From an uncultured Verrucomicrobiae bacterium (GTDB lineage Bacteria; Verrucomicrobiota; Verrucomicrobiia; Palsa-1439), in assembly GCA_963812605.1 (NCBI GenBank), contig CAWEWF010000005.1, positions 288,001 through 352,000 of the forward strand: 64,000 bases of DNA, given 5' to 3'. The notes beneath the pieces were generated by a model. It was not told the origin of the DNA. It saw only the letters and a list, made by a program, of their open reading frames with translations, and did no database searches. Of the stretch, positions 21,836-30,501 are shown piece by piece. The position numbers were made by a program, and so were the translations under genes. Position 1 is the stretch's first letter, and the number at the start of each line of letters is the position of its first letter.

Positions 21836-23301
21836 ATGATGGTATCGACTGGGAACAAACTACTGCGACGGGTTCTCCAGACTGTCCTATTCAGTGTGGT
21901 GGCGATGGAGGCGCACGCGGGCCTTTGGATCTCGGCTTACTACGCGGGCTGGATGCAAAGTTACCTGCCGGCGCAGCAGGTCGATTTCACGGCGATGACG
22001 CACATTATCCATTTTGCCGTGGTGCCCAGGGTTGACGGGACCCTCGACGGCGACGCGAATGCTGTCACGTTGGCGAATTCCAAGGATATCGTCGCTCGCG
22101 CGCATGCCGCGAAGGTCAAGGTACTGATTTCCGTGGGCGGAGAGAATAGCGCGGATGGTTTTCGGGGCGCGACGACCGCGGCGAACCGGCCGCGTTTCAT
22201 CACGAACCTCGTAAACTTCGTCACCGCACGCGGCTACGATGGCGTCGATTTGGACTGGGAACCGTTGGATGCGCCGGATGGCGGTCCATATTCCAATTTG
22301 GTCAACGAGCTGCGTCTCGCGCTGGATGCCATCACTCCACGTCCACTGCTGACGGCGGCCGTGGGATCTCAGCCGTCACTGTTTGCTTCCCTGCAAAGTC
22401 GGTTCGACCAGATCAACCTGATGACCTACAGCTTTTCCGGGGCATGGCCCGGTTGGGTGACGTGGTTTCATGCACCCATTTACGACGGTGGCTATAGGTT
22501 CGCGAGTCGGGCGAGTTGGTGCCATCCGCCGACGGAGTCGTTAGCAATTTTCTGGCGCATGGTGTGGCTGCCGGCAAACTTGGGATCGGGATTTCCTTCT
22601 ACGGTTGTGTTTGGAGCGGAGGCAACGGCACGTCCACCGGCGGCGCGGCGTTGCCGCGCCAATCCTGGACGACAGCACCGACGGTGGCCCCGGTCGCCTA
22701 CTCGGCGATCATGTCCAACTACTATCAGCCGCAATTGTATTTCTGGGATACGAACGCGCAGTCGGCTTATCTCAGTATCGACCGTCTGGGGGCTGCCAAT
22801 GACAAGTTCATTTCCTACGACGATCCGACAGCCTGCCGCGCCAAAGTTGCGTACGCCAAACTGAAAGGATTGGGTGGCCTGATCATTTGGGAGTTGGGAG
22901 GCGGCTACCGCGCCGACCAACCGGCCGGTCAGCGCGACCTGCTATTGCAATCCGTCAAACAAGCGATCGCCAGTCACGCAGTCGCAGCAGACGCGGCGAT
23001 AGAGTGCTTCGTAGCGGGGCACGATGACCTCCGCGGAAAATCGTTCGCGGGCGCGATCTTTTGCCGCGCAACCCAGTGCGGACCGGCGGACCGGGTCTTT
23101 AATCAAACTTTCGACGGCCCGCGCCAGGATATCAGCGTCTCCCGATGGCACCAGCAGTCCGGTCACGCCATTTTCGACGACCTCCGGAATCCCGCCTACG
23201 CTTCGAGCAATGCTGGGGCAGGCAAAACACATCGCTTCCAAAATGCTCAGGCAAAAACTCTCCGTTTCGGATGTAATCAGCCCAAGGTCGGCGGCCTGTA
23301 G
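21836..23301 (+). CDS. Secreted GH18 chitinase-like hydrolase (frameshift near 22510; domain ends ~22975, frame runs on into bshA)
   Basis: LISVGG, DGVDLDWE, NLMTY, ISYDD, GLGGLIIWEL. Confidence 0.85.
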
Positions 23302-24115
23302 ATAATCTTCGATGTCGTTGACCTTGTCGCGCACGATGACCCGGTTTTCGAGGCCAAGCCGCCGCACCATGTCGACGAACGGCGTGAAGTCCCCGCCAGC
23401 GAGAATAAGCAGTTTGAACGAATCTTGCGGACGAATGCGCGCGACGGTATCGAGCAATAAATCGATGCGTTTCAACGGACGAAGATTGGAGGAATGCAGT
23501 ATTAGCACCTCGTCTTGCACGCCGAGGTCGCGCCGCACTTCCGTCCGCGAGCGCAGAGGCGGGCGGGGCGCGAAGAAATTATGGATCACATCGATTGGTC
23601 GATCCACCGCGAGCAATCGCTGGGTTTCCTGTTGCAGGAAAGCCGACACGGTCGTGATGGCATCCGAGCAGGCGAGGGCGTGGCGGATCGCCGGCCCGTA
23701 CCCCGGATCGCGGCCCAGCAACGTGGTGTCCGTGCCGTGCAGTGTGGTGACCACGCGGGGTTGTTGCTCCGGCGGCAGCATCGACTGCGCGAGGATGGCG
23801 GCCGTCGCGTGGGGCACGGCGTAGTGGACGTGCAGTACATCCAACTGATGGTCGCGGCTCACTTCCGCCATCTTGACGGAGAGCGGGCAGCGTGTAATCG
23901 GGGTACTTGAACAGATCGTAGTCGTTGATGATCACCGGGTGGAAATGCAGGCGAGGGACATCGACCGGCAAACGGAACGGACGTTCGTAGCTGATGAAAT
24001 GCACCTCGTGGCCGCGTTTCGCCAACTCTTCGCCCAGGGCGGTGGCGAGGATGCCGCTTCCCCCCACCGATGGGTAACAGGTGATGCCGATTTTCAATGG
24101 GCGGCTGGTGGTCAT
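22942..24115 (-). CDS. bshA: N-acetyl-alpha-D-glucosaminyl L-malate synthase (frameshift near 23885)
   Basis: [50 protein letters not shown]. Confidence 0.9.
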
Positions 24116-24121
24116 GGCAAA

Positions 24122-24859
24122 TCAAAAATGCCGCGCGCCCCGGCTCACGGGCACGAGCGAGTCGAAAACGAGTGGATCGTTCGGAAAGAGGGCGATGGCA
24201 TGACCGATTCCGGCGCGCAGTCCGCGCAGACGGGCGCGGGTGAGTTGCAACTCGACGTAATTGCGGGTGCGAGCCTGCGACGCATGCGCTTCCATCGCGG
24301 CAGTCCACGCGCCGAGGATTTCCCGTGCGGAGACGTTGATGAGAATCGGCGTAATGTCGGAAGGCTCGGCTTCGGGCGTTACTGCGTAGAAAAAGAGTTG
24401 ATCGATGGCATGCGGAGGCGCGGCGCGCAATTCCTTCACGCCGCCGTAACGAGCCAGCCGCGCCGCGTCGCGGACGAGTTGTCCGAGTCGCGCGTGGTCG
24501 GGATGCTGATTTTCCACCAGGCTCGGCGCGAGCACGATGCCGGGTCGCGTGCGGCGGAAAATTCTGGCGAGCTTGATGGCGTGGGCGACGCGGACCTCCA
24601 GGTGCGCATCGCCATCGAGTTCGATGAACTCCACTGTCGCACCGAGGAGCGCCGCGGATTTTTTTGCCTCGGCGACCCGTTGCGCGGGCGTGCCGTGCGT
24701 CGCCGCTTCGCCGCGCGAGCAGACGACGAAATGCGCGGCGCGGCCGGCGCGGGTCTCGCTGGCGACAACCCCGCCACAGCCGAACTCGATATCGTCGGGA
24801 TGCGCGCCAAAGGCCAGGAGCGATGCGAGTTTACGACGGGATTTCGGTATAAGCTTCAT
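24122..24859 (-). CDS. bshB1: Bacillithiol biosynthesis deacetylase BshB1-like (PIG-L family)
   Basis: AFGAHPDDIEFGCGG, SRGEAATHGT..R, HPDH; adjacent to bshA. Confidence 0.82.
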   Translation of the reverse strand: MKLIPKSRRKLASLLAFGAHPDDIEFGCGGVVASETRAGRAAHFVVCSRGEAATHGTPAQRVAEAKKSAALLGATVEFIELDGDAHLEVRVAHAIKLARIFRRTRPGIVLAPSLVENQHPDHARLGQLVRDAARLARYGGVKELRAAPPHAIDQLFFYAVTPEAEPSDITPILINVSAREILGAWTAAMEAHASQARTRNYVELQLTRARLRGLRAGIGHAIALFPNDPLVFDSLVPVSRGARHF

Positions 24860-25607
24860 CGGAACGGTCAATTGTATCACGGTTTACGAACGTAATCCCC
24901 GGCGTTTCTTGCGGATGCAGATAGATCTGTTCGCTGGCCCCGCAAACGTAGTGGGTGCAATGCACGACTGATTGCATCCAACGAAGCCGGGTGTCGCGCG
25001 CCGGGCTGATTTGGTCCCTGGTGAATGCGGTTGCCGGCAGGGTCACGAAACGGTCTCCGCCCTCGTGAAGCGTGAAGACGCCATCGCAACACCGGGCGCG
25101 CACGATTTCACCCTCGTGCGGCACGTCGACGAAGAACTCCTCGACGTCGCACGCCGCGCGCCGGAACGACGGGTCGCTCGAACGCGCCACGCGCAGGCCA
25201 TCGAGCAGTCCAATGCGGCGGTACATCTCCAGACAAAAATCAGCCGCATTTTTGGCGGAAGTTTCCTGGAAGATCTCGATACAGCGGCGCTCGACGTAAT
25301 TGGGCAATTGAAGCGCGGTCCGGGCGTGCCAGTCCGGGGGGATGCGCTTGAGATAGAGCGGGGAGAATTTTCGCTGGAGTTTGTTCTCGAAAGTGAAGTT
25401 GAGGTGCGCCGGTTCACCGGTCTTGCGGTGGCGCAGGAGGGTTTTGGTCTCGCGCGGATCGTGGTCGCTATCGTGGTAGAAAAACACGATCTCGCCTCCG
25501 ATCTCGGCTTGCAGCCGCCGGGCTGTCTGGATTTTTGCCACCAGAAACCGTTTCGGGAAGAACCCGCACGGCTGCTGGCCGAAACAGATGACGGGCGTGG
25601 TGCTCAT
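24831..25607 (-). CDS. Short (258 aa) BshC-like protein
   Basis: FGQQP, FFYHDSDHD and YVCGASEQIY match the BshC GQQ, DHD and YVGGPGE..Y motifs; coupled to bshB1 and the symporter. Confidence 0.65.
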   Translation of the reverse strand: MSTTPVICFGQQPCGFFPKRFLVAKIQTARRLQAEIGGEIVFFYHDSDHDPRETKTLLRHRKTGEPAHLNFTFENKLQRKFSPLYLKRIPPDWHARTALQLPNYVERRCIEIFQETSAKNAADFCLEMYRRIGLLDGLRVARSSDPSFRRAACDVEEFFVDVPHEGEIVRARCCDGVFTLHEGGDRFVTLPATAFTRDQISPARDTRLRWMQSVVHCTHYVCGASEQIYLHPQETPGITFVNRDTIDRSDEAYTEIPS

Positions 25608-27295
25608 GGGGCGGCCAAAAGCGGCGCGGCCTGGATGATCAGGCTGAACAGAATGCAGGCGGCGCAGCCGATGAAGTTGTACCAGAGATAGCTGATGTTC
25701 AGCGAAAAATAGAGAATGAAAACGAGGGCTTGCGCCGCCAGGGCTCCCCAAAAGATCGCCGTACCGCCGACCCGACGGAAGAAGAACGCCACGAGGAACA
25801 GCGCGAGCACCACGCCGTAAAAGATCGAGCCGACGATGTTGACGGCCTGGATCAGGTTCTCGACCAGGTTCGCAAAAAGAGCGAAGGCGAGCGCCACCAG
25901 GCCCCAGAAGAGGGTGAACCATTTTGAGGCGGCCACATAGTGCGCATCGGTCGCATCGCGCTTGATGATGTGCCGGTAGAAATCGATGGTGGTCGTCGAA
26001 CCGAGCGCGTTGAGTTCGGCGGCTTTCGACGAGAGCGCGGCGGCGAAGAACGCCGCGACGAGCAGCCCGATCACCCCGTGCGGCAGATGGTCCAGCACGA
26101 AGGTGATGAACACGTAGTCGGAGTCGTTGGTTTTCGCATGCGAATCCGCCGCCAGCAGCGCCGTTTTGACGTCGGCGCGCACGGCCTCGCTGCGTTCGAG
26201 CGCCGCCTGCGCCTGCGCGCGGGCCGCGGCCTCCGCTTTGTGGTCGCCCGAATGTTTGGCGTCGAGCCAGGTGTGAATCAGTCGTTCCTTCTCGGCGTGG
26301 ATCGCGGCGAATTGCTGCTGGAGGGAATGCAGCCGGTCGCCCGGATCATGTTTGGCCTCGAGGTTCCAGGCAGTCTGGTTGAAAAAGACCGGCGGCCGTT
26401 CGAACTGGTAGAAGACGAAGATCAGCGAGCCGAGCAGGAGAATGAAAAATTGCATGGGGATTTTGAACACGGCATTGAACATCAGGCCGAGCCGGCTTTC
26501 GCGCAAGGACGCACCCGAAATATAGCGTTGCACCTGGGATTGGTCGGTGCCGAAGTACGACAGCGACAGGAAAATGCCGCCGAGCAAGCCGGACCAGAAA
26601 GTGTAGCGCCGCCTGATATCGAGCGAGAAATCCACCGCCTGGAGTTTGTGGAAGCCGCCGGCCACGGTGAGGGCGTCGGTCAGCGAAAGGTTCGACGGCA
26701 ATCTTGCCAGCAAGACGACGAAGGCGGTCACCATCCCGCCAAAGATCACGGCCAACTGGTATTTCTGGGTGAGGGTGACCGCTTCGCTGCCACCGGCCAC
26801 GGTGTAGACGATGACCAGCAGGCCGCTGAGGACGATGGTGAGGTCCAACCGCCAGCCCAGCATGGTGGAGAGGATGATGGCGGGCGCGTAAATGGTAATT
26901 CCCGCGGCGAGCCCGCGTTGCAGGAGAAAGAGCGCCGCCCCGAGCAGACGGGTCTTGGTGTCAAAGCGGTGGCCCAGGAACTCGTAGGCGGTGTAGACAT
27001 TCAAGCGCCGGTACATTGGCAGGAAGACCGCCGCGATGATGATCAGCGCCAGCGGCATCCCGAAATAGTTCTGCACGAAACCCAGTCCATCCTGATAACC
27101 CTGGCCGGGAGTGGAGATGAAAGTGATTGCGCTGGCCTGGGTAGCCATGACCGAAATGCCGATAGCGGCCCATTTCACGTTTGGGTCACCCTTGAGGTAG
27201 TCGCTCAGGTTCTGCTGGCCGCGCGTGCGCCACATGCCATAGAGGGCGATTCCGACCATGCTGCCGATCAGGACTACGAAATCGAGCGGGCTCAT
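25604..27295 (-). CDS. Sodium:solute symporter (SSS family)
   Basis: SVMATQASAITF, YFGTDQSQVQRY, multiple TM helices. Confidence 0.93.
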   Translation of the reverse strand: MSPLDFVVLIGSMVGIALYGMWRTRGQQNLSDYLKGDPNVKWAAIGISVMATQASAITFISTPGQGYQDGLGFVQNYFGMPLALIIIAAVFLPMYRRLNVYTAYEFLGHRFDTKTRLLGAALFLLQRGLAAGITIYAPAIILSTMLGWRLDLTIVLSGLLVIVYTVAGGSEAVTLTQKYQLAVIFGGMVTAFVVLLARLPSNLSLTDALTVAGGFHKLQAVDFSLDIRRRYTFWSGLLGGIFLSLSYFGTDQSQVQRYISGASLRESRLGLMFNAVFKIPMQFFILLLGSLIFVFYQFERPPVFFNQTAWNLEAKHDPGDRLHSLQQQFAAIHAEKERLIHTWLDAKHSGDHKAEAAARAQAQAALERSEAVRADVKTALLAADSHAKTNDSDYVFITFVLDHLPHGVIGLLVAAFFAAALSSKAAELNALGSTTTIDFYRHIIKRDATDAHYVAASKWFTLFWGLVALAFALFANLVENLIQAVNIVGSIFYGVVLALFLVAFFFRRVGGTAIFWGALAAQALVFILYFSLNISYLWYNFIGCAACILFSLIIQAAPLLAAP

Positions 27296-27423
27296 GAAAA
27301 CGTGACCGTCAGCGCGACGAGGAGTCCCACCCAAATGACGAAGGAGACGAGAACGAAAATGTAAACCGCGCGCCAGGTATTAAGCCACGGCAAGCCGGTC
27401 GCTTTGTCGTCCAATGGCTTCAT
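27292..27423 (-). CDS. 43-aa single-TM peptide (absent from the ORF track)
   Basis: MKPLDDKATGLPWLNTWRAVYIFVLVSFVIWVGLLVALTVTFS; ATGA overlaps at both ends. Confidence 0.8.
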   Translation of the reverse strand: MKPLDDKATGLPWLNTWRAVYIFVLVSFVIWVGLLVALTVTFS

Positions 27424-29929
27424 TTTCCCAGTGAAATCAGGTTGGCAAAGAGCCGGTAAGCGCCCGGTACGCCTTCGGGCAACTGGCGGAACCAGGACAG
27501 CCCGGTGTAAACGAAATAGCCGCGACCGTAATGCGCCACGAGGAGGCTCCCGTTCTTGGGCGACTCGCCGGGATCGTTGCAGGCAAGGAGCGGCGTGAAA
27601 TGGTCATCCCATTCGCCGGCGAAATACAGTCCGCGCTCCTGCACCCAACCATCGAAATCGGAGGCAACGATACGGTTGGGGGTCGTAAACACCGGATGGT
27701 CGGGAACGAGCAGGGTCATCGGCGCATTTTCGTCCGTGACGCGGTCGCGCGAGATCTTCAGGTTGTAAGGAGCGAGATGGGTCGTCAGCAAACCATCGGT
27801 CGTATTGTATTGGACGATGACATTGCCGCCGGCTTCGACGTACGCGAAGAGGCCGGGCAGATTTTGGACGAGGTCCGTGCGGGTATTGAAAGCGCGGATG
27901 CCAATCACCACCGCATCGAAGCCGCGCAGGCGGTCCGCTGTCAGATCCGCGCCGGTAAGAAGTGTCACGGCGTAACCCATTCGTTGGAGGCTCTCGGCGA
28001 CGGAATCGCCGGCACCGGGCAGGTAGCCGATTTGATGGCCACGAATCGCCAAGTTGAGACTCAGCGCCTTGAACTGCGCGGGGGGCTGCAGCAATAGCGA
28101 TGGGATATGATCGTGGTGAATCTCGACGTGCCGATTGTGGTAGGTCTTGCCATCGATCTCGGCAGCGGCGAGGATTTTCGCAGTCGTGGAGTTCGTCGGG
28201 GCGGTGATGGTGAAAGTAAAGCGCGCCAGCTCATTGTAATTGGTCAGGGAGAACGAATATGTCGCGGGCGTTACTTTCCAATCGGCGGGCATTTCCAGAT
28301 GGAGCGTGCCGGTTGCCCCGGCGCGGGCCGAGGTGACTTCGACCACCACGGGCTTGGCCGTGCCCGGAGCGAACAGCGCGAGGTCTTCGGGAAAATTGAG
28401 CGAAACGGGCGGGATCACTTCCAGGCGCTGACGAATTTCGCCTTTCACCCGGTCACCGATAACTTGTACAGGTTCGTCGGGAATGACCAGCGTTTGGCCG
28501 TCGACTTCGAACACATACTCCACCGGAAATGCCGGAGGATTTTCGGGACGGCCAATGAGCGAAGGATCGTCCACGCGGAACATTCCGATTGTGCCCTCTT
28601 CGCGCAACCAATAAGGTTGGCTCAACGCGGTGTTGGCCGGCAGCGTCCGGGACGATTCCTTGACTGCGGCCTGATTGGGTTTCAAGTCGGCGTTGGTCGC
28701 GAGTTCGTCTCCGCCGGCGGGGTAACGCACGGCAGTCCAGCGCACCGGGAAATCCGTCCGCACCATGGCGCTGTGACGCATCTTCAAGGTTTCGCCGGGC
28801 ACGGCCTCGGCCAGCGGAATCGACGTCTCGACGTACAGCCCGAGGCAGCCTTGCAGGATGTGATCGAGTTGCCGGCGTTTGTATGCAATCACGGTGTCCG
28901 TGGGCAGAGCGGCGAGCCGTCTTCGCAATGTCAACAGGGCCGGCACACTGGCGGCGGGATTCTGCGGGTTGAATTGTGCGATGCCCTCGTCAGTCAATTT
29001 TCCGATCTCCGCGCCATTGGGAACGCGCGCCCAGGTTGTGTCGACGCCATCAAGGATGTCTTTGGTTGCGGGCTCGCCAGCGAGGAGTTGGAAGGTTTCG
29101 TTGGCGTTCCCGCGAGTGCCGACGCTGCCGAAGCCCTGGGTCTTGTGCATGGACCGGCTTTTAGCGGCGATTTCGCCGTAGGATTCACCGAGGAGCGGGT
29201 TGTAGCCGCCGATGTCGAGCTGAAGGCCGGGAGGTGTGTTGGTTCCACTGTCTGTGCCGCGTCCTCCGAATCCCCGGGGGAAGCCATTCCAGAGAATGCG
29301 TTTTGGCTGCCACGGCTGCAACTCGCGGAGTTGGTCGGGAAAAGCATTGGTGTCACCGGCGAGCTTGAAGGCTTCGACGGCGAGAATTGCCGACGCGGTG
29401 TGATGACCATGCGTGTTGCCGGGTTCGGTGGAAAAGCGCGTGATAAGCACATCGGGTCGGAATTCGCGGATGACCCGCACAACGTCCGCCAGCACTTGTT
29501 GACGGTCCCAGATGCGGAACGTCTCGCGGTAGTCCTTGGAAAATCCGAAGTCGAGAGCGCGCGTGAAGAATTGCTGGCCACCGTCGATGCGGCGGGCGGC
29601 GAGCAACTCCTGGGTGCGGACCACGCCCAGTTCTTCGCCCAACTCGGGGCCGATCAAGTTTTGGCCGCCATCGCCGCGGGTCACGGAAAGATAGCCGGTA
29701 CGATAGCCGCGACCGCGCGAGAGGTAGGCGATGAGGCGGGTGTTTTCGTCGTCGGGATGGGCGGCGATGTAAAGCACGCTGCCCATTTCGCGAAAACTGC
29801 GGAGTTCCTGCAGAATCGCTGACGCCGACTGTGGGTCGGCGGCTTGGGTGCCGACCGGAAGGCCGAGCCAGCGTCAAGACACCAGCGGCAAGGAGGCGGA
29901 AGGAACCAAGGACTGCGGATGGCCGGCAT
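27420..29929 (-). CDS. Large secreted PIG-L/LmbE family deacetylase/amidase (indel(s) in the signal-peptide region)
   Basis: AAHPDDE, TRGDGGQN, HGHH; C-terminal GWVQERGLYF domain; hydrophobic leader split across frames at 29850-29929. Confidence 0.85.
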
Positions 29930-29931
29930 TT

Positions 29932-30501
29932 TTATTTTTTGACCGTGAACGGCACTGAGAATTGCGTGCTTTCCCACATCATCTTTAATAGACCACCGCC
30001 GGACGAATTCTTCTCAATCGCCATGGTGAATTGATCGACTGGCTTGTCCAGAGCGTCCTTCTTCAGGTCGATGCGCGCGACATCTTGAGACTCGTCATAT
30101 ACTTCTTTGAAATCACCGCGACTGGCGCCCCATTGGCCGATTTGTTTGTTAATGACCAACTTGGCCGTGCCGTCTTCATTCGGGAGGGTCCAGAGCGTGT
30201 ACGCGCCCGCGGGGATCGTCGTGTCGCCAAAGGCGAGCGGCTTTTGCGTGATGAGGAGCGTGGCTTCGTCGGAGCCGGTGCGCCAGACCTTGCCGTAAGG
30301 CACCAGTCCTCCCCAGATTTTGCGGCTCTCGCCTGTCTTGGGGTCCTTGGTGTACGGACGCCCGTAAATAATCGTGATGCGATTGCCATCGATGACGGTG
30401 CTGATGGTGTCATGGGGGCTGACGCGTTTTTGCTGGGCCATAAGCGGCGAGGCGCTGAGGATAACGGCGGCGATCACAAATGCGGACTTGAACTGGTTCA
30501 T
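29932..30501 (-). CDS. DUF2911 domain secreted protein
   Basis: RVSP, YGRP, LVPYGKVWRTG, PAGAYTLWTLP. Confidence 0.88.
   Translation of the reverse strand: MNQFKSAFVIAAVILSASPLMAQQKRVSPHDTISTVIDGNRITIIYGRPYTKDPKTGESRKIWGGLVPYGKVWRTGSDEATLLITQKPLAFGDTTIPAGAYTLWTLPNEDGTAKLVINKQIGQWGASRGDFKEVYDESQDVARIDLKKDALDKPVDQFTMAIEKNSSGGGLLKMMWESTQFSVPFTVKK

Follow-up and report, generated by a model that had tools for sequence, protein, structure and literature searches.

We analysed a 64,000-nucleotide (nt) stretch of the genome of an uncultured Verrucomicrobiae bacterium (contig CAWEWF010000005.1, positions 288,001 to 352,000; "the window" below means the whole of this stretch) and focus here on one of its open reading frames (ORFs), which encodes a protein of 258 amino acids (aa), P0001. 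Predicted fold and sequence profiles support this protein as a remote homologue of the catalytic core of the bacillithiol-pathway enzyme BshC, a Rossmann core of the class-I aminoacyl-tRNA synthetase type, and we refer to it and its family as mini-BshC. We consider it probable, at about 60%, that mini-BshC replaces BshC as the third step of the pathway, after BshA and BshB. The replacement is favoured because the gene order around mini-BshC is conserved and because mini-BshC and BshC exclude each other. Computation supports each of these two points, as well as the fold, the homology to BshC and the conservation of length, all of which are described below.

A structural model of mini-BshC was computed with AlphaFold2 from alignment A2, which holds 20 full-length family members from both of our searches for relatives, eight frameshifted or partial representatives of alignment A1 having been dropped. 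The model reached a predicted local distance difference test score (pLDDT) of 94.5 and a predicted template modelling score of 0.91. Foldseek against the PDB returned two matches at E ≤ 1e-3, the first being B. subtilis BshC (4WBD; E 4.9e-10, 14% identity, query-normalised template modelling score 0.68) and the second the class-I lysyl-tRNA synthetase LysRS (1IRX; E 2.5e-4). Superposition with VIA-align ranked the two in the same order, with 4WBD at Z 20.2 (242 of the 258 residues aligned at a root-mean-square deviation of 2.8 Å), 1IRX as runner-up at Z 14.7, and every other listed row at 9.6 or below.

The relationship can also be seen between sequence profiles. As a reference we used P0271, the canonical BshC of genome G070 and the sole one found in 201 genomes of the window's phylum, together with alignment A3, composed of 25 BshC sequences picked for diversity from the 120 listed relatives of P0271. 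Aligning A2 to A3 with hhalign gave a probability of 91.7% (E 7.6e-7) over 222 columns, and placed residues 5-231 of P0001 on residues 83-344 of P0271; separate runs gave a probability of 81% with E 1.2e-5 (local) and an E of 1.4e-6 (global). In a protein-language-model search, a cluster of the BshC family PF10079 (score 0.91) ranked directly after two clusters of the mini-BshC family itself. A preliminary description of this DNA, made from its letters alone, had spoken of a minimal Rossmann-core BshC. With B. subtilis BshC as the best structural match in the PDB and the two profiles in agreement, this is a fair account of both fold and ancestry. A phmmer search of P0001 against PDB sequences showed no link to BshC and gave chance-level matches only, to STING (E 0.47-0.5).

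Comparison of the two families residue by residue showed a partly retained set of conserved positions. Within the aligned span, 37 BshC columns are at least 90% conserved, and the mini-BshC consensus is identical at 18 of these, namely G88, Q89, Q90, K103, F126, D132, H133, D134, E137, G215, F272, S314, R320, G336, E339, Y342, P358 and T367, the counterpart of the last being poorly conserved within the mini-BshC family. K25 of P0001 thereby aligns with K103 of BshC; D48, H49, D50 and E53 align with D132, H133, D134 and E137; and S201, R207, G223, E226 and Y229 align with S314, R320, G336, E339 and Y342. Of the 20 sequences in A2, 90% or more retain the G10-Q11-Q12 motif. The GQQ, DHD and YVCGASE..Y motifs that had been pointed out earlier as standing in BshC order are indeed present, in the same order and register as in BshC, and they are not there by chance, being in register both by profile-profile alignment and by superposition. 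Mini-BshC has no equivalent of the first ~80 residues of BshC, and nothing that corresponds to the part after residue ~375, to which the coiled-coil domain PF24850 belongs. This domain was found as a separate gene in none of four carrier genomes (G000, G177, G180 and G189), so the lost coiled coil is not supplied by a separate gene; it is present in G070.

The limits of the ORF are well defined. Its start codon, read directly from the sequence, is the ATG at 25607, which overlaps the TGA stop codon of the upstream SSF symporter ORF in an ATGA. The C-terminus of the protein lies only 29 residues past Y229, and the 3' end of the gene is overlapped by the downstream BshB-like ORF, by 50 nt if that ORF starts at GTG 24880 or by 29 nt if it starts at ATG 24859. 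ATG 24859 is, as judged from homologous sequences, most likely the real start, because the methionine of "MKP..." is kept in 19 of 19 relatives, 8 of which have a stop codon upstream of it. The preliminary description of an intact 258-aa ORF, coupled to both neighbours and ending shortly after its last motif, is therefore borne out. A longer reading of 363 aa from ATG 25922 was dropped as a gene because its homologues begin where the 258-aa ORF starts. A scan of positions 22500-30200 for promoters and terminators gave counts inside the range of shuffled sequence, and no RNA run is listed as containing the stretch.

Mini-BshC belongs to a family of conserved length. A word-indexed protein search with P0001 (E ≤ 1e-3) retrieved 6898 relatives, the best 120 of which were inspected. 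These are 71-89% identical to P0001, all of them "hypothetical" and without a match in Pfam or NCBIfam, and 107 of the 120 measure 254-260 aa, the remaining 13 being 264-301 aa long. Close homologues are thus not full length, and the short form is not the artefact that it might have been. A phmmer search against 1.84 billion cluster representatives gave 242 matches, and the 150 listed all belonged to the mini-BshC family or were fragments of it. When the search was limited to proteins of 453-2000 aa, 13 were found, with a PIG-L domain in four, an SSF domain in seven, the BshA glycosyltransferase domains in one and no such domain in one; a BshC domain was absent from all 13, which represent fusions to, or read-throughs into, the genes next to mini-BshC. 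Of three long forms that were read in detail, P0400 and P0399 are frameshifted read-throughs, and P0392 is the in-frame fusion described below. In species-representative genomes the family is encoded by at least 597 stretches (597 of 600 were confirmed), and it is also present in the complete single-contig genomes G177, G180 and G189.

A few members depart from the common pattern. The metagenome protein P0392 (495 aa) joins mini-BshC cleanly and in frame to a BshB-like deacetylase, and P0396, P0401 and P0402 are further fusions of this kind, each a single sequence on a single contig; each of these may be either a natural fusion or the result of a one-base error. The most divergent full-length member, P0168 (257 aa, 33-34% identical), has SEQ instead of GQQ and W-D-S-W-H-R instead of H-D-S-D-H-D, and so may be a paralogue that has lost its activity or been put to another use. 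In P0089 and P0103 (282 aa), a loop of the beta subdomain is lengthened by a Gly-, Ser- and Ala-rich insertion of ~24 residues, which falls between positions 175 and 176 of P0001 (A1 columns ~306-330).

Across genomes, mini-BshC is found together with BshA and apart from BshC. Among 201 genomes of the window's phylum, in which genomes of one clade are not independent of each other, the family occurs in 10, and BshA above its curated cut-off occurs in 11, comprising all 10 mini-BshC carriers and G070. The BshA proteins of these clusters score 381-402 bits as compared to a cut-off of 273.7, and in 10 of 10 carriers BshA is encoded ~0.7-0.9 kb from mini-BshC on the same strand. Canonical BshC was found in one of the 201 genomes, G070, which has no mini-BshC. 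No BshC was found in any of the 65 mini-BshC carriers (0/10, 0/5 and 0/50), of which the 55 further ones (5 and 50) are of unreported completeness, and G000 itself is 90% complete; a six-frame search of the whole genome with the curated BshC model TIGR03998 gave nothing at E ≤ 1e-3. One genome of the set of 50, G350 (locus L062, flagged as unpublished), is also among the 80 loci described below and contributes one row each of A4 and A5; no conclusion hinges on it.

The loci are labelled mostly as Verrucomicrobiota, with some labelled Planctomycetota/Phycisphaerales or Obscuribacterales/Cyanobacteria. Genera that have cultured members, such as Lacunisphaera, Oleiharenicola, Pedosphaera and Methylacidimicrobium, also appear in the record titles. 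Among 101 genomes of the phylum of G202 (Cyanobacteria bacterium SZAS-4), only G202 itself carries the family. Three loci (L046, L050 and L057), at least 73% identical and with the full cluster, lie in metagenome-assembled genomes titled "Bifidobacteriaceae" or "Akkermansia muciniphila", the second of which measures 5.8 Mb; the labels or the binning of these records are probably wrong.

We examined the gene neighbourhood in the 80 best loci from named records, all of them at least 68% identical and hence a biased sample. Mini-BshC is part of a conserved five-gene cluster, composed of a gene for a 788-aa PIG-L protein, an SSF symporter gene, mini-BshC, bshB and bshA (Table 1). BshA lies within 2 kb of mini-BshC in 64/67 judgeable loci, and the 788-aa PIG-L gene is found upstream on the same strand, also in 64/67. 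Over the same 49 loci the median identity to the window's proteins is 73% for mini-BshC, 72% for BshA and 72% for BshB.

Table 1. Mini-BshC, its conserved motifs and the neighbouring genes of the cluster (positions in the window).
Feature	Position	Strand	Description
mini-BshC (P0001)	24831..25607	minus	258-aa ORF, BshC-core homologue; predicted Rossmann-type core of five strands, into which helical and beta subdomains are inserted
G10-Q11-Q12	25572..25580	minus	Loop after strand 1; aligns with invariant G88-Q89-Q90 of BshC (P0271 numbering)
H45-D46-S47-D48-H49-D50-P-R-E53	25449..25475	minus	Loop after strand 2; H45..D50 at 25458-25475
S201..R207..(M211-Q212)..C217-T-H219-Y220..G223..E226..Y229	24921..25007	minus	From alignment to BshC
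Y220-V-C-G-A-S-E-Q-I-Y229	24921-24950	minus	Sequence read directly
BshB1-like PIG-L deacetylase	24122..24859	minus	PF02585, 76.6 bits; adjoins mini-BshC in 71/75 judgeable loci
bshA (N-acetylglucosaminyl-L-malate synthase)	22942..24115	minus	TIGR03999, in two frames
SSF transporter	25604..27334	minus	576 aa; PF00474, TIGR00813 217.5 bits; directly upstream of mini-BshC in 63/74 judgeable loci
788-aa protein	27420..29786	minus	PF02585 over residues 5-139; first gene of the five-gene cluster

The bshA gene of this assembly is frameshifted. Positions 1-71 of TIGR03999 are matched in one frame (92.4 bits) and positions 76-373 in another (282.6 bits, above the cut-off of 273.7), the frame being broken where a CCC run (~23885-23888) contains one base too many. 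The gap between the two parts measures 13 nt here as compared to 12 nt in 63 of 63 relatives. Only the contig of a more distant relative spans the site, with one letter fewer at 23888; the pieces of the near-identical contigs end at 23781 and resume at 23886, so that the site is not covered by them. The extra base may have arisen in the assembly, or it may be a real mutation that inactivates the gene. The preliminary description had missed this frameshift in bshA.

The PIG-L (LmbE) domain of the 788-aa protein is closest to the mycothiol conjugate amidase Mca (TIGR03446, 55.5 bits against a cut-off of 277), and its other ~640 residues have no family match, with flavodoxin matches at ~580-647 being at chance level. 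The protein may, by this resemblance, be a thiol-conjugate amidase, which we offer as a lead only. The SSF symporter gives a weak match to the pantothenate symporter PanF (52.8 bits) and contains a charged, helical-looking insert of ~90 residues at ~310-400, between two stretches that match the SSF model. The idea that this insert stands in for the lost coiled coil and docks the enzyme was discarded, since the insert, going by a manual count of the hydrophobic segments, would face the periplasm.

Several loci deviate from the common order. At L017 and L060 (6001-7031), bshA follows directly after the mini gene, with no bshB in between; at L050, bshB does not adjoin the mini gene; at L051, neither bshB nor bshA lies within 6 kb of it; at L045, bshA was not found; and at L096, it is 3.4 kb away. 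In such genomes, deacetylation may fall to the second PIG-L protein.

The pathway that we propose would begin with BshA making N-acetylglucosamine-malate (GlcNAc-malate), from which the BshB1-like deacetylase would yield glucosamine-malate (GlcN-malate). Mini-BshC, acting in the cytoplasm, would then acylate the free amine of GlcN-malate; cysteine is the most probable acyl group, and bacillithiol or something close to it the resulting product. The retained residues (G10-Q11-Q12, K25, D48-H49-D50, E53, S201, R207, G223, E226 and Y229) are predicted to sit at the C-terminal edge of the parallel sheet, where substrates are bound in this fold. The mini-BshC lineage would be able to do without the coiled-coil domain for dimerisation and without the ~80 N-terminal residues of BshC, and the replacement would extend to a subset of Verrucomicrobiota and to a number of genomes with the label Planctomycetota or Obscuribacterales. 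What is inferred in this scheme is the identity of substrates and product, and the chemistry.

A number of findings weigh against mini-BshC doing the work of BshC. P0001 is unmatched in Pfam and NCBIfam at E ≤ 1, including by TIGR03998 and PF10079, the latter matching none of the 20 members of A2 at E ≤ 10, and the family profile has no match among PDB sequences at E ≤ 10. Nineteen of the 37 conserved BshC columns are changed, among them G92, G96, P97, T100, W127 (to F), R280, P321, Q324 and R363, and R50, N61, L77, P124, P477, Q482, E483, R484 and H514 of BshC are left with no counterpart, so that the invariant C-terminal Q-E-R and H are gone. C8, C125, H219, D46 and S47 are invariant in mini-BshC and not in BshC, and C217 and H45 are near-invariant. 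The BshB-like protein has BshB1 (TIGR04001) as its best match, with a score of 121 bits that is under the cut-off of 182.5. Since bshA is frameshifted, the pathway may also be broken in this particular assembly.

The enzymes that work with bacillithiol also do not follow mini-BshC. YpdA over its cut-off was found in 0/4 and 0/50 carriers, the closest scores among the 50 being 301 bits (G338) and 296 bits (G350) against a cut-off of 339.9; YtxJ was found in 0/4 and 0/50, and BrxA/B in 0/4. The control genomes in which YpdA exceeds its cut-off are the very three with BshC, and G070, with its canonical BshC, has YpdA, YtxJ and BrxA/B. YtxJ and BrxA/B are weaker markers, because only two and one of the control genomes, respectively, contain them. 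With YpdA and YtxJ missing from the carriers, either the product or its redox partners may therefore differ. The glutathione synthetase gene gshB was found in 0/4 carriers, nor was it found in G070. G180 and G070 each encode a protein with a YpdA-like N-terminal domain (G180:C1:102181-102951 and G070:C1:1502785-1503579; 137 and 163 bits over profile positions 1-265) in frames of ~770-820 aa, which could be an alternative disulfide reductase. P0001 departs from the curated BshC family in its model scores, in having neither coiled coil nor N-terminal segment, and in the absence of YpdA from its genomes. It is therefore not filed here as a member of that family, but as a domain-minimised variant of that kind of enzyme.

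Many of these points could also be explained if mini-BshC kept the fold and the place of BshC in the pathway and performed a different chemistry, either by placing a group other than cysteine on GlcN-malate or by using another route of activation. The preliminary description, too, had named a different acyl group as one of its options. One such route would be a direct ATP-dependent ligation with a metal site made of the family-specific Cys and His residues. Whatever is formed, be it a variant of bacillithiol or a GlcN-malate conjugate that is not a thiol, would have partner enzymes of its own. We regard this as a serious rival, though clearly less probable than the replacement proposed above. 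It would account for the changed and missing BshC columns, for the absence of YpdA (above its cut-off) and YtxJ from all 54 carriers each and of BrxA/B from four, and for the sub-threshold score of the BshB-like protein. It would also fit the dedicated symporter and the unusual 788-aa PIG-L protein, which have no counterpart among the Bacillus genes, and the family-specific invariant residues, as far as conservation patterns can tell, could be a sign of it; one may speculate that the invariant Cys and His form a zinc site as in CysRS and MshC. On the other hand, the residues that mini-BshC has in common with BshC are the very motif residues that are invariant across BshC, and BshA passes its equivalog cut-off, which argues for the usual GlcNAc-malate intermediate. 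The absence of YtxJ and BrxA/B is also less telling given that these are not universal even among the three BshC holders of the control set.

A BshC-derived protein that has ceased to be a ligase appears quite unlikely to us. Such a protein could recycle or salvage an imported amino-sugar conjugate, or serve as a regulatory or scaffolding subunit. Its tight coupling to the SSF importer, through the ATGA overlap and the adjacency in most loci, would be in keeping with this, as would the loci in which bshB does not adjoin (L017, L060, L050 and L051) or in which bshA is more than 2 kb away or not found (L045, L051 and L096); BshC itself, according to the literature, has no demonstrated activity in vitro (PMC5790435). 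However, the active-site-type motifs are near-invariant across the family, which would be unexpected for a scaffold; BshA, a synthase, co-occurs in all ten carriers of the phylum sample; and the family is never found with canonical BshC, a pattern of replacement rather than of an accessory protein. The frameshift in the neighbouring bshA shows that local sequence errors are possible, and might raise the suspicion that the ORF is only part of a full-length bshC, cut short or wrongly called, or that it codes for nothing. This is excluded for practical purposes by the uniform length of relatives from many independent contigs and sources, by the recurrence of the family in species-representative and complete genomes, by flanking genes that overlap both ends and leave no room for the lost domains, and by the confidently predicted fold (pLDDT 94.5).

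The replacement of BshC by mini-BshC would bear on two gaps in thiol biology. According to published accounts, no in vitro activity of BshC has ever been demonstrated, and its activated cysteine donor is not known (PMC4360819, PMC5790435), in agreement with the preliminary remark that its cysteine-ligase chemistry had not been reconstituted. The same accounts describe the coiled-coil domain as forming the BshC dimer (PMC4360819, PMC5790435) and recount that BshC was originally found by its co-occurrence with bshA and bshB (PMC5790435). Hiras et al. (2018) count both Verrucomicrobia and Planctomycetes with the lineages that have "no documented or predicted" low-molecular-weight thiol and urge the study of genomes with partial pathways (PMC6282198). 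A pathway survey of 2025 demanded full-length BLAST matches to BshC (PMC12719100), and would for that reason miss genomes with mini-BshC. No report of a short or alternative BshC, or of bacillithiol in Verrucomicrobia, was found in the literature searched, most subscription journals lying outside it.

A natural BshC reduced to the Rossmann core tells the indispensable residues and domains from the rest, and provides a smaller protein for biochemical and structural work. If mini-BshC indeed does the job of BshC, the predicted range of bacillithiol-type thiols would gain a large and environmentally abundant group of soil and freshwater bacteria, and the missing YpdA and YtxJ would point to unknown redox partners. 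A bolder and, in our view, doubtful proposal is that the five-gene module as a whole represents the missing low-molecular-weight-thiol system of Verrucomicrobiota, in which bacillithiol or a new derivative of it is made by a 258-aa ligase that is self-sufficient and has its family-specific invariant Cys and His residues as ligands of a metal or of the cysteine substrate. In that event mini-BshC, with no coiled coil and no need for an unknown co-factor of BshC, could be reconstituted in vitro, and such a reconstitution would reveal the chemistry of the BshC step.

Among known systems, mini-BshC most resembles BshC (YllA; 4WBD; TIGR03998; PF10079 and PF24850). Both have a Rossmann-type core with inserted subdomains, both carry GQQ..K, DHD..E, S..R and G..E..Y in the same order and register, and mini-BshC goes together with bshA and bshB as BshC does, with no other BshC-like gene in its genomes. 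The two differ in size (258 aa as compared to 520-570 aa for BshC), mini-BshC having neither the N-terminal ~80 residues nor the C-terminal coiled-coil domain, and their sequences are only 14-15% identical, such that the curated BshC models miss mini-BshC. The invariant C-terminal Q-E-R and H of BshC are absent from mini-BshC, which has invariant Cys and His residues of its own, and its genomes are without YpdA and YtxJ, unlike G070 with its canonical BshC.

The class-I aminoacyl-tRNA synthetases are the next most similar group. LysRS (1IRX) has the same general nucleotide-binding Rossmann architecture, with 209 residues aligned at Z 14.7, and the cores of TyrRS, GluRS, GlnRS and GluQRS reach Z 8.3-9.6, clearly weaker than BshC. 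No sequence-level signal to these enzymes appeared in the PDB sequence searches. Mini-BshC, when read by eye, contains neither a HIGH nor a KMSKS motif, with GQQ filling the loop after strand 1, and it lacks an anticodon-binding domain, the Rossmann core being both its sole domain and the extent of the structural similarity; its neighbours are genes of a thiol pathway and not of translation. No MshC or CysRS chain was among the 50 listed VIA-align rows or the listed Foldseek rows, and no direct comparison with them was made. MshC is an ATP-dependent cysteine:GlcN-inositol ligase and a paralogue of CysRS. In the mycothiol pathway it catalyses the analogous step, the addition of cysteine to the amine of a deacetylated GlcN conjugate, on a fold of the class-I synthetase type, and the mycothiol route likewise employs a GT4 transferase and a PIG-L deacetylase ahead of MshC.

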